NCBI RefSeq assembly: GCF_003018255.1
Contig: NZ_CP027440.1
Reading direction: 5' to 3' (one strand)
Source of the DNA: Escherichia coli
GTDB taxonomy: Bacteria; Pseudomonadota; Gammaproteobacteria; Enterobacterales; Enterobacteriaceae
DNA: 64,000 nucleotides
Shown here: positions 3,376 to 35,612 of the stretch, in pieces
Numbering within the stretch: position 1 is the first letter of the stretch
How the letters are laid out: each line of letters begins with the position of its first letter
Made by a program: the position numbers and the translations under genes
The notes under the pieces: generated by a model
The model's input: only the letters and a program-made list of their open reading frames with translations
Told to the model about the DNA's origin: nothing
The model's database searches: none

Positions 3376-5025
3376 ATGGAAATCTTCTTCACCATACTGA
3401 TAATGACCCTCGTGGTCTCGCTGTCCGGGGTGGTCACTCGTGTCATGCCCTTTCAGATCCCGCTTCCGCTTATGCAAATCGCCATCGGTGCGCTACTGGC
3501 GTGGCCGACGTTTGGTTTGCATGTGGAGTTTGATCCTGAACTCTTTTTAGTCTTGTTTATCCCGCCGTTGCTGTTCGCTGATGGCTGGAAAACGCCGACC
3601 CGTGAATTTCTCGAACATGGTCGAGAGATTTTCGGCCTCGCGCTGGCGCTGGTGGTGGTCACCGTGGTCGGCATTGGCTTTCTTATTTACTGGGTGGTGC
3701 CGGGCATTCCGCTGATCCCCGCCTTTGCGCTGGCGGCGGTGCTTTCTCCGACCGATGCTGTGGCGCTCTCGGGGATTGTTGGCGAAGGGCGCATCCCGAA
3801 AAAAATCATGGGCATTTTGCAGGGCGAAGCGTTGATGAATGACGCCTCCGGTCTGGTGTCGTTGAAGTTTGCCGTGGCAGTGGCGATGGGGACGATGATC
3901 TTCACCGTCGGTGGTGCGACGGTCGAATTTATGAAAGTGGCCATTGGCGGTATTCTCGCCGGTTTTGTGGTGAGCTGGCTGTACGGTCGCTCGCTGCGAT
4001 TCCTCAGCCGCTGGGGCGGTGATGAACCCGCGACGCAGATCGTCCTGCTGTTCCTGCTGCCATTCGCTTCTTATCTGATTGCCGAACATATTGGCGTTTC
4101 CGGTATCCTCGCTGCGGTTGCCGCCGGGATGACCATCACCCGTTCCGGTGTGATGCGCCGTGCGCCGCTGGCAATGCGCCTGCGCGCAAACAGTACCTGG
4201 GCGATGCTGGAATTTGTCTTTAACGGCATGGTATTCCTGCTGTTAGGTCTGCAGCTGCCGGGTATTCTGGAGACGTCGCTGATGGCGGCAGAAATCGACC
4301 CTAACGTCGAAATCTGGATGCTGTTTACCGATATCATTCTGATTTATGCGGCGCTGATGCTGGTCCGTTTCGGCTGGCTGTGGACGATGAAAAAGTTCAG
4401 CAACCGCTTCCTGAAGAAGAAGCCGATGGAGTTTGGTTCGTGGACCACACGAGAAATCCTGATCGCGTCTTTCGCCGGGGTGCGTGGGGCGATCACTCTG
4501 GCTGGTGTGCTCTCAATCCCGCTGCTCTTGCCGGATGGTAACGTCTTCCCGGCGCGCTATGAGCTGGTGTTCCTGGCGGCTGGTGTCATTCTCTTCTCGC
4601 TGTTTGTCGGCGTGGTGATGTTGCCTATTCTGCTACAACACATTGAAGTCGCGGACCATTCGCAACAATTGAAAGAGGAACGTATTGCGCGAGCGGCAAC
4701 GGCAGAAGTGGCGATTGTGGCGATCCAGAAAATGGAGGAGCGTCTGGCGGCGGATACCGAAGAGAATATCGATAACCAGCTGCTCACAGAGGTTAGTTCT
4801 CGCGTCATTGGTAACCTGCGTCGTCGCGCCGATGGACGTAACGACGTTGAAAGTTCCGTGCAGGAAGAGAACCTTGAGCGTCGCTTCCGTCTGGCGGCAT
4901 TGCGTTCTGAACGTGCTGAACTGTACCACCTGCGCGCCACGCGGGAGATCAGTAACGAAACGCTGCAAAAATTACTGCACGATCTCGATTTGCTTGAAGC
5001 GTTGCTGATTGAAGAGAACCAATAA
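3376..5025 (+). CDS. yjcE: Putative Na+/H+ exchanger (CPA1 family)
   Basis: 549-aa ORF with N-terminal multi-TM domain and charged C-terminal tail. Confidence 0.85.
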   Translation: MEIFFTILIMTLVVSLSGVVTRVMPFQIPLPLMQIAIGALLAWPTFGLHVEFDPELFLVLFIPPLLFADGWKTPTREFLEHGREIFGLALALVVVTVVGIGFLIYWVVPGIPLIPAFALAAVLSPTDAVALSGIVGEGRIPKKIMGILQGEALMNDASGLVSLKFAVAVAMGTMIFTVGGATVEFMKVAIGGILAGFVVSWLYGRSLRFLSRWGGDEPATQIVLLFLLPFASYLIAEHIGVSGILAAVAAGMTITRSGVMRRAPLAMRLRANSTWAMLEFVFNGMVFLLLGLQLPGILETSLMAAEIDPNVEIWMLFTDIILIYAALMLVRFGWLWTMKKFSNRFLKKKPMEFGSWTTREILIASFAGVRGAITLAGVLSIPLLLPDGNVFPARYELVFLAAGVILFSLFVGVVMLPILLQHIEVADHSQQLKEERIARAATAEVAIVAIQKMEERLAADTEENIDNQLLTEVSSRVIGNLRRRADGRNDVESSVQEENLERRFRLAALRSERAELYHLRATREISNETLQKLLHDLDLLEALLIEENQ

Positions 5026-33856: not shown

Positions 33857-33914
33857 AATCATGTTCTCACGGTAAGGGGATAGGTAACTCCGCGATGGCG
33901 GAATTACCTTTTTC

Positions 33915-34805
33915 TTATTTCAGCGCGCCTGGTGAGAAGAAATCAACAATTGCGCCGGTTTTTTGCATATTAATATTAGCTTGTTCAATGTTGAGCTGGG
34001 CGACAGAGACAAAAAACGCGTCCAGCAAAGTTAGTTGTAATATTCTTGCCGAGGCATTACGACCTAATAACGGTGTTTCCGGGGCCGGTGAGCAAATAAT
34101 ATAATCGGCCAGCTTCGCTATCGGTGAATGGTAGCTATGCGTTATACAAATAATCTTTGCCCCGTTCTTTTTTGCCAGTTCTACAGCCGCTTTTACATCA
34201 CTGGTTCGCCCGGAATGGGTCACCACCAGCACCACATCTCCTTCCTGTAACAACGAAGCAGACATCATCATGATGTGAGCGTCCGGATAGGCCTGGCAGC
34301 GTACGCCAATGCGCAAAAACTTGTGCTGTACATCAGCACAGATTGCATTTGATCCTCCGGCACCGTACAAATCCCGCTGTCTGGCCTGATAGAAAAAGCG
34401 GGCGGCACGGTGGATCTCATCAACGTTGACGATCGACTGACCTTCCATAATGGTGCGTAAAGTGATGTTAAATACCTTATTCACCACATCCTGCGGCGCT
34501 TCATCAAAAGCCAACTCGGAAGGCAATACTTGTTCTGACTGAGAAAAATAATCTTCCAGCGCACTGCGTAAGTTACGAAAGCCGCTAAACCCCAGCAGCT
34601 TTGATACCTTAACGATCATCGCTTCAGATACCGCCAGAGCTTCTGCGACATCTTTAATTGCGGGTGCACAACTCAGGTTACCGGGTTTGAGTAACCACTC
34701 CACGATGCGGCTTTCGTTTTCTGTCATTCCTTCCTGCTTCATTCGCAGGTAAGGCGCTAACCCGATACCGTTCGGAAGCGCTGAATCAAACTCTGACTGG
34801 CTCAT
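33915..34805 (-). CDS. rpiR: RpiR/AlsR transcriptional repressor (HTH + SIS domain)
   Basis: ~296-aa ORF, divergent from rpiB. Confidence 0.85.
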   Translation of the reverse strand: MSQSEFDSALPNGIGLAPYLRMKQEGMTENESRIVEWLLKPGNLSCAPAIKDVAEALAVSEAMIVKVSKLLGFSGFRNLRSALEDYFSQSEQVLPSELAFDEAPQDVVNKVFNITLRTIMEGQSIVNVDEIHRAARFFYQARQRDLYGAGGSNAICADVQHKFLRIGVRCQAYPDAHIMMMSASLLQEGDVVLVVTHSGRTSDVKAAVELAKKNGAKIICITHSYHSPIAKLADYIICSPAPETPLLGRNASARILQLTLLDAFFVSVAQLNIEQANINMQKTGAIVDFFSPGALK

Positions 34806-35162
34806 CACGTTCTCTTGTCCTTGAATTGAAGACGCCACTATATCACCACAGCAAGAACAGAAAAGATGCTGGCAACTTCACAAAAAAATAAAATTTATAA
34901 AGTTTGTTTTGTTGTGAATAATGGAGAGTGGCTTAAAATTTCATTTCATTTAATCACTTTAAAAACATGATGTTATTGTTTTCCTGGTTTATTAGATGAT
35001 AGATGTTGCTGGATAGTGAGTGTCTTTAACGCTATTGCGCTGCCAGATGTAACTCTGTAAAACAGATCGGGAAGGCGGATTTCATCGATTTTGGGTGTTT
35101 TTAATTCATTTACATCACAAATGTTTTTTGATTGTGAAGTTTTGCGCGGGCGGGGAAGATGA

Positions 35163-35612
35163 ATGAAAAAGATTGCATTTGGCTGTGATCATGTCGGTTT
35201 CATTTTAAAACATGAAATAGTGGCACATTTAGTTGAGCGTGGCGTTGAAGTGATTGATAAAGGAACCTGGTCGTCAGAGCGTACTGATTATCCGCATTAC
35301 GCCAGTCACGTCGCACTGGCCGTTGCTGGCGGAGAGGCTGATGGCGGGATTTTGATTTGTGGCACTGGCGTCGGTATTTCGATAGCGGCGAACAAGTTTG
35401 CCGGAATTCGCGCGGTCGTTTGTAGCGAACCTTATTCCGCGCAACTTTCGCGGCAGCATAACGACACCAACGTGCTGGCTTTTGGTTCACGAGTGGTTGG
35501 CCTCGAACTGGCAAAAATGATTGTCGATGCGTGGCTGGGCGCACAGTACGAAGGCGGTCGTCATCAACAACGCGTGGAGGCGATTACGGCAATAGAGCAG
35601 CGGAGAAATTGA
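35163..35612 (+). CDS. rpiB: Ribose-5-phosphate isomerase B / allose-6-phosphate isomerase
   Basis: 149-aa ORF of the RpiB/LacAB family. Confidence 0.92.
   Translation: MKKIAFGCDHVGFILKHEIVAHLVERGVEVIDKGTWSSERTDYPHYASHVALAVAGGEADGGILICGTGVGISIAANKFAGIRAVVCSEPYSAQLSRQHNDTNVLAFGSRVVGLELAKMIVDAWLGAQYEGGRHQQRVEAITAIEQRRN

Follow-up and report, generated by a model that had tools for sequence, protein, structure and literature searches.

The stretch of Escherichia coli DNA analyzed here (64 kb, termed the window) contains alsA, alsB, alsR (rpiR), rpiB, yjdP and phn genes. alsB lies downstream of alsR, and alsR and rpiB are divergently oriented, with a 357-bp spacer between them. The two genes that flank the spacer are:

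35163–35612, plus strand: rpiB (alsI) coding sequence, the regulated gene (TIGR01120 rpiB equivalog, 254 bits)
33915–34805, minus strand: alsR (rpiR) coding sequence, the repressor, 296 amino acids from the MSQ start (NCBIfam NF040776 AlsR equivalog, 488 bits)

K-12 b4089 is annotated as the repressor AlsR, and the RefSeq K-12 record has no binding feature annotated in the alsR–rpiB spacer. When purified RpiR was used in genomic SELEX, a single E. coli target was obtained, the rpiR/rpiB spacer, at the resolution of the spacer (PMC5934670). No base-level AlsR site (footprint, EMSA or ChIP-exo) was found in the literature searched, the 1996–1999 primary papers excepted, and searching the literature with the literal box sequences described below gave no match.

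For comparison, alsR loci were gathered at one genome per species. Thirty-four Enterobacterales loci shared the divergent arrangement of alsR and rpiB, with 329–373 bp between the genes, and, together with the window, made up a set of 35 spacers. Information-content profiles were computed on 28 non-redundant spacers, with a mean pairwise identity of 58%.

The palindrome and the rpiB-proximal box

The segment 35115–35137 is TCACAAATGTTTTTTGATTGTGA, in which the arms TCACAA (35115–35120) and TTGTGA (35132–35137) enclose 11 nt (ATGTTTTTTGA). The original prediction had reported this inverted repeat ∼25 bp before rpiB, and 25 nt indeed separate the right arm from the ATG (35163). The exact TCACAA-N11-TTGTGA pattern occurs once in the window. 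As a bare inverted repeat, however, the palindrome is not above chance: perfect 6-bp inverted repeats with a gap of 0–20 nt number 2 in the 357-bp spacer vs. 3.5 ± 2.5 in dinucleotide shuffles, and 530 in the whole window (∼3 per 357 bp). The arms cannot be extended as a perfect repeat, and the 9-nt arms ACATCACAA and TTGTGAAGT are 89% complementary. The palindrome is meaningful because of its conservation and recurrence, and not because of its symmetry. The repeat counts are those expected of a functionless palindrome that arose by chance in AT-rich intergenic DNA, but such an origin is contradicted by the conservation islands, the recurrence and the association with alsR across two bacterial orders presented below, and we consider it extremely improbable.

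The arms stand out as islands of conservation (1.84 and 1.53 bits, compared with 0.50 bits for the N11 between them and 0.91 bits for the whole intergenic region). Both arms are kept across the 28 non-redundant spacers, in agreement with the expectation, raised with the prediction, that the palindrome should be conserved in relatives. Across genera the right arm reads (T/C)GT(A/G)AAGT and reaches position 35140, 3 nt past the end of the palindrome. Since conservation of the right arm runs to 35140, the conserved unit is a 29-bp segment, here termed box B, with the following parts:

35112–35140, no strand assigned: box B, the proposed rpiB-proximal AlsR box, ACATCACAA-N11-TTGTGAAGT, 29 bp, which contains the palindrome and has 1 mismatch to ACTTYAYAA-N11-TTRTRAAGT
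35112–35120, no strand assigned: putative left half-site of box B, ACATCACAA; most other genera have AAATCACAA; information content 1.72 bits on average
35132–35140, no strand assigned: putative right half-site of box B, TTGTGAAGT, with the conserved core GTRAAGT at 35134–35140 (1.64 bits, 34/35 spacers)

ATCACA in the left half-site is kept in ≥90% of the 35 spacers, and the left half is consistently off consensus (ACATCAC or AAATCAC, not ACTTCAC). Perfect TTGTGA was observed in E. coli only; CTGTGA replaces it in E. whittamii and in one outlier E. coli strain, and CGTAAA or TGTAAA in other genera. Judged from these sequences, the perfect 6-bp symmetry is peculiar to Escherichia. The half-sites are spaced by N11 in Escherichia, Citrobacter, Pantoea and Shimwellia, and by N12 in Klebsiella, Raoultella, Enterobacter and Cedecea. 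The distance from box B to the rpiB ATG is 45–51 nt in 33 of the 35 spacers.

Within E. coli, box B of K-12 MG1655 is identical over its 29 bp (TCACAA at 4313302-07, rpiB ATG at 4313350), and none of the 19 spacer differences between K-12 and the window falls in it. The alsR–rpiB spacer is present in 3,396 of 5,426 complete E. coli genomes, and a 38-mer around the palindrome is matched at ≥99% identity in 2,067 genomes. Alleles were surveyed by retrieving divergent matches; in the most divergent ones sampled (93.5% over 76 nt) box B is intact, with the variation located just downstream. Two composite 38-mers designed for the minor E. coli allele gave no match. One E. coli match (H12) retains rpiB and box B and has a hypothetical protein in place of alsR, and two copies of the spacer sit on plasmids.

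TGTGA and TCACA are also the core pentamers of CRP, and the als operon is reportedly subject to catabolite repression (a finding ascribed to Kim et al. in 1997), which the arms could mediate as CRP half-sites. A CRP core is TGTGA-N6-TCACA, whereas in box B the order of the pentamers is reversed (TCACA…TGTGA) with 13 nt between them. The best CRP-like matches, at 35104 and 35133, reach 7/10, but each consists of one perfect pentamer plus chance identities and is present in only 11 and 9 of the 35 spacers, respectively, and the right arm of other genera contains GTAAA, not GTGAA. A CRP site at box B, with wrong order, wrong spacing and non-conserved matches, was rejected, and we regard this role of the pentamers as highly improbable.

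Paired boxes at the alsR end and association with AlsR

A repeat finder located words of the palindrome again near alsR (ACTTCACAAA at 34875 and TTGTGAA at 34912). These words form a gap-free dyad with 21-nt arms (86% complementary), and the alignment contains three conserved blocks at this end, ACTTCACAAAA, TT(C/T)ATAAAGTT and TTGTGAAGT. The three blocks resolve into two overlapping boxes with the geometry of box B:

34875–34903, no strand assigned: box A1, alsR-proximal, ACTTCACAA-N11-TTATAAAGT, 0 mismatches to the consensus
34892–34920, no strand assigned: box A2, AATTTATAA-N11-TTGTGAATA, 3 mismatches in the window, 12-bp overlap with box A1

ACTTCAC and ATAAAGT of box A1 are each present in 35/35 spacers with N11 spacing throughout; TTGTGAAGT of box A2 is found in 31/35 spacers, and the spacing of this box is likewise invariably N11. 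Boxes A1 and A2 together form a 46-bp dyad, mirror-symmetric about 34897/34898, and the overlapping pair is also found in Providencia and Sodalis. The left half of box A1 is overlapped by a CRP-like 7/10 core (TGCTGGCAACTTCACA, 34867–34882) that is positionally conserved in 34/35 spacers, its centre ∼44.5 bp upstream of the alsR start. What is truly conserved is the TCACA half only; because this half is already explained by AlsR, a real CRP site at this position is doubtful.

When the 64 kb were searched with ACTTYAYAA-N11-TTRTRAAGT at ≤3 mismatches, exactly three matches were obtained, A1 (0 mismatches), B (1) and A2 (3). All three lie within the alsR–rpiB spacer, with 0.13 expected, and 0/100 shuffles reached three. 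The cross-genus pattern TCACA-N14-RTRAAGT at ≤1 mismatch gave 4 matches in the window, all in the spacer, vs. 0.65 expected. Over 36 loci (∼245 kb), 113 matches fell inside the spacers vs. 7 outside. A PWM of 29 columns, derived from B sites outside Escherichia with the spacer included, placed box B at the top of the window and A1 second. This PWM was rejected for its poor discrimination (16.7 in the window vs. a shuffle maximum of 19.6), and half-site-only patterns replaced it because shuffles scored similarly.

Four of the seven matches outside spacers come from Histophilus somni (AlsR 57% identity, no rpiB nearby), in which a zero-mismatch box (ACTTTACAA-N11-TTGTGAAGT, matched on both strands) lies with a neighbouring match in the alsR–alsB gap. 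Eight further orthologue contigs were obtained and scanned blind with the consensus. Zero-mismatch boxes were found upstream of alsR in Gallibacterium (AlsR 57% identity) and before alsB, in the alsR–alsB gap, in Pasteurella (55% identity), neither with rpiB nearby. Providencia (81%), where alsR precedes alsE and PTS genes and rpiB is likewise not nearby, has the overlapping A1/A2 pair with 1 mismatch each. In a Pectobacteriaceae genome (69%) the spacer has boxes at its rpiB end as well as at its alsR end, and Sodalis-like genomes (67–68%) have weaker box pairs before alsR. Near a homologue with 46% identity that lies outside an als context (L090), the scan revealed no box. The background in shuffled loci was 0.93 matches per locus at ≤4 mismatches, the loosest threshold. 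Since the box stands beside alsR or als genes in varied contexts, it travels with alsR and the als genes and not with rpiB.

Several features of the more distant sites were recorded. In Pasteurellaceae (L032, 3920–3953; L088, ∼3926–3965; L087, ∼2927–2965) the perfect box is directly followed by TGATC(A/G/T)CTTTTTT. In Histophilus this stretch continues to TGATAAAGT, which abuts a perfect TATAAT; TGATAAAGT is a second, B-like site with N12-type spacing and seems to overlap the alsB −10. A related arrangement, ACATTACGA-N12-TTGTAAAGT (L089, 2683–2712), occurs in the divergent upstream region of an RpiR-family homologue (47% identity) that lies outside an als context, with AP-endonuclease-like and SIR2 neighbours. 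On this ground the half-site may be common to a wider subfamily.

The boxes could instead serve a different regulator, such as RbsR or another sugar repressor: a base-level assignment to AlsR is not on record, and ribose also induces the regulon. However, the box accompanies alsR orthologues into different gene contexts, pure RpiR selects the spacer in SELEX, and LacI-family boxes have a form unlike that of the AlsR box. We consider an operator of another regulator very unlikely.

These data indicate that (i) the palindrome is, judged from the sequences compared, very probably one of three AlsR (RpiR) binding boxes in the alsR–rpiB control region; and (ii) spacer-level binding in SELEX, conservation of the arms as dyad half-sites, recurrence at the alsR end and association with the regulator were all found, which supports the earlier proposal of an RpiR (AlsR) operator for rpiB and makes the palindrome a probable AlsR operator. 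The extent proposed for the operator requires revision: the palindrome lies inside the box, but the box is 29 bp long and one of three.

Promoters, leader structures and a possible mode of control

Two promoter elements were located in the spacer:

34837–34845, minus strand: alsR promoter, extended −10 TGATATAGT (TATAGT with upstream TG in 35/35 spacers; start 34830)
35035–35063, plus strand: candidate rpiB promoter P1, TTGCGC, 17 nt, TAAAAC (31/35 spacers; predicted start ∼35070)

SMRT-Cappable-seq places the alsR transcription start at K-12 4313016 (PMC6131387 supplement), which maps to window 34830, the start predicted from the extended −10. With alsR starting at 34830, boxes A1 and A2 occupy positions −45 to −90; this location, upstream of the alsR core promoter, is not classical for steric repression.

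The alsR transcript in the SMRT-Cappable-seq data (K-12 4313016 to 4312063) stops at window 33877. This is 6 nt beyond the stem of a stem-loop (GGTAATTCCGC-CATC-GCGGAGTTACC, 33883–33908, minus strand) that lies in the alsR–alsB gap (33863–33914) and has no U-tract. The literature describes a single alsRBACE operon; the transcript end at 33877 suggests an alsR-only mRNA under non-inducing conditions. In E. coli this gap contains no AlsR box, in contrast to Pasteurellaceae, whose boxes sit there.

P1 is the only positionally conserved σ70-like element on the rpiB strand (TTGnnn-17 nt-TA(A/G)AA(C/A)), and in the window it is the only plausibly placed plus-strand PSSM match scoring ≥5 before rpiB. 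Its −10 lies 57–60 nt upstream of box B in 32 of the 33 spacers with a −10 match, and 67 nt in the remaining one (L028); L026 and L030 have no −10 match. No rpiB transcription start was found in the Cappable-seq or Kim 2012 data. If rpiB is transcribed from P1, its start would lie near 35070, and box B would span roughly positions +43 to +71. In other genera the same columns (35035–35064) form a conserved block, TTG...TG...TGTA(A/G)AAC, whose centre is TTGTGAAAT in 21 of the 35 spacers, none of them Escherichia. This is an extra AlsR-like half-site inside the P1 spacer, and by its sequence it may be a third, weak AlsR contact point that was lost in Escherichia.

The box B arms might themselves be the rpiB core promoter, in which ATCACA would resemble a −35 and T(A/G)AAGT a −10, both conserved for RNA polymerase and not for AlsR. 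ATCACA-16 nt-TAAAGT scores as a weak σ70 promoter in 28/35 spacers, all outside Escherichia, and TTCACA-15 nt-TAAAGT is present at box A1 in 35/35. The window, however, reads ATCACA-15 nt-TGAAGT, without the key A at position 2 and without a PSSM match ≥5, and the promoter and PSSM scans detected no σ70 core promoter at box B with hexamers 16–18 nt apart in the window. A core promoter at box B is ranked low because of this 15-nt spacing and the TGAAGT hexamer. In addition, the elements have dyad symmetry and are found in either orientation, conservation extends beyond the hexamers (AC.. and ..AAGT), the spacing at A1 is always 15 nt, which is poor for σ70, and the Pasteurellaceae boxes before alsB or alsR have separate −10 elements. 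We therefore consider it unlikely that the arms are conserved as a promoter, although promoter and operator would be compatible, since operators often overlap promoters.

With a start near 35070 the palindrome would be transcribed, and it could then form an RNA hairpin in the rpiB leader that acts on stability, translation or termination. The same stretch is one strand of a conserved helix in a sister clade (see below). The stem, however, is weak (−4.4 kcal/mol), the leader of the window folds no better than shuffles (z = +0.91), and the substitutions in the arms are not compensatory: TCACAA is fixed while its partner becomes CGTAAA. No terminator-like site was found. A hairpin or terminator at box B was rejected on the weak stem, the z-score and the lack of a terminator-like site, and we give this function of the palindrome next to no credence.

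The sister-clade helix was observed in Enterobacter, Cedecea, Kosakonia, Lelliottia and Huaxiibacter (L014–L018, L020–L025, L027, L029, L033, L035 and L036), where a segment ∼55 nt upstream is complementary to a stretch that runs from the end of the box B left arm across the entire spacer into the beginning of the right arm (alignment A2, columns 16–32 with 67–84). The helix has 17 counted pairs (∼17–20 bp in MFE folds). Ninety-one percent of the cells are paired, compared with 32–50% when the partners are slid, and 0/500 shuffles reached the score. Nine pairs have changed on both sides, the fold z-scores range from −2.7 to −4.3, and the G·U pairs fit the rpiB-sense strand only. The three related loci scanned (L014, L015 and L018) gave no Rfam match. 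Klebsiella, Raoultella, Pantoea, Citrobacter and Escherichia lack the helix (equivalent region of the window, 35070–35140), and RNAalifold over all 24 leaders found no structure common to all lineages. This covariation could reflect a leader RNA hairpin or a DNA quasi-palindrome maintained by template switching. If it is leader RNA, transcription would come from upstream of box B.

As for AlsR, its mode of action may be proposed as follows. Box B would be the 29-bp operator of this RpiR-family repressor, with the palindrome as its core. An AlsR dimer would place one helix-turn-helix domain on each arm, with the arm serving as a half-site, and would not read the 11 nt in between. In the absence of inducer (D-allose and ribose in the literature), AlsR on the boxes would keep rpiB and alsR-alsBACE expression low. 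rpiB would be transcribed from the 35035–35063 element, and box B would act as a downstream block; alternatively or additionally, it would anchor a loop to the A boxes through an AlsR tetramer. The A-to-B distances are 207.5–237 bp, with clusters at ∼220–225 and 229–237 bp that are roughly one helical turn apart; helical phase is loosely kept (R ∼0.46), with a wide spread within the clusters. RpiR-family proteins form dimer-of-dimers tetramers with mobile DNA-binding domains, and RccR, such a tetramer, accepts sequence-free spacers of 3 bp and 16 bp and tolerates a weak second half-site (PMC11014249). In view of this precedent, a tetramer that bridges the A boxes and box B is plausible, and the N11/N12 variation of box B is less worrying. 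We consider the explanation as a whole, with box B as an AlsR operator and A1 and A2 as two further boxes, to be probable with good confidence; a downstream block, a loop or both would be the most likely mode of repression. Within it, we infer the contact of AlsR with the exact bases of the boxes and the manner in which box B would block rpiB.

An extension of this scheme is tentative, and we find it rather doubtful. Box B, located in the rpiB leader and coupled through a tetramer to the double box, would in Enterobacter, Cedecea, Kosakonia and Lelliottia also supply ∼20 nt as the 3′ strand of the helix, so that the operator would be read both as DNA and as RNA. If true, one element would exert control at two levels, something that has not been described for the als regulon.

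The proposed AlsR boxes and other RpiR-family operators

The AlsR box can be compared with the operators of several known repressors. Daddaoua et al. reportedly defined the HexR operator of Pseudomonas putida in 2009 as TTGT-N7/8-ACAA. HexR resembles AlsR as an RpiR-family sugar repressor with a TGT/ACA palindrome in divergent promoter regions, with release by a phosphosugar in the case of HexR; the HexR spacer and half-sites are shorter, however, and the order of the arms is opposite (TTGT...ACAA vs. ACAA...TTGT).

MurR, in the 2008 work of Jaeger and Mayer, is said to act at two adjacent inverted repeats in the E. coli murR-murQ divergent region. The divergent regulator/target layout and the presence of several inverted repeats in one spacer are shared with AlsR. 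MurR is a tetrameric repressor (PMC11014249). The sequences are unrelated, and the MurR repeats are adjacent, whereas AlsR has a double box and a single box ∼230 bp apart. In GalR OE/OI and similar two-operator loops, one operator precedes the promoter and the other falls within the first part of the transcribed region. By analogy only, boxes A and B would likewise be an operator pair that a multimeric repressor could bridge; the protein family differs, and the A–B helical phasing is only loosely kept.

The RccR operators of Pseudomonas are TGTAGT-N3-ACTACA (aceE) and TGTAGT-N16-ACTACA (aceA), and RccR is released or switched by a sugar-phosphate effector (PMC11014249). RccR and AlsR are both RpiR-family proteins (HTH_6 and SIS domains), and both systems have a pseudo-palindrome with a length-constrained, sequence-free spacer. 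In contrast, the AlsR half-site is 9 bp (ACTTYAYAA), arranged as half-site-N11-reverse complement, with an arm orientation opposite to TGTAGT...ACTACA, and RccR has many targets whereas the three AlsR boxes share one control region.

The AlsR box would be an operator of the ordinary kind, serving a local sugar repressor within the divergent control region of its own gene, and our understanding of RpiR-type regulation is unchanged by it. AlsR (RpiR) is the namesake of a large family of sugar-responsive regulators, and in the literature found its operator had previously been located only to the alsR–rpiB spacer; as far as checked, outside RegulonDB, RegPrecise and the 1996–1999 papers, the base-level definition of the box is new. 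It would add a long-spacer member with opposite arms to the few characterised RpiR-family operators. The consensus and the three boxes provide targets for mutagenesis and for the design of allose/allulose-responsive biosensors, and the consensus can be used for annotation of the als regulon in Enterobacterales and Pasteurellales.
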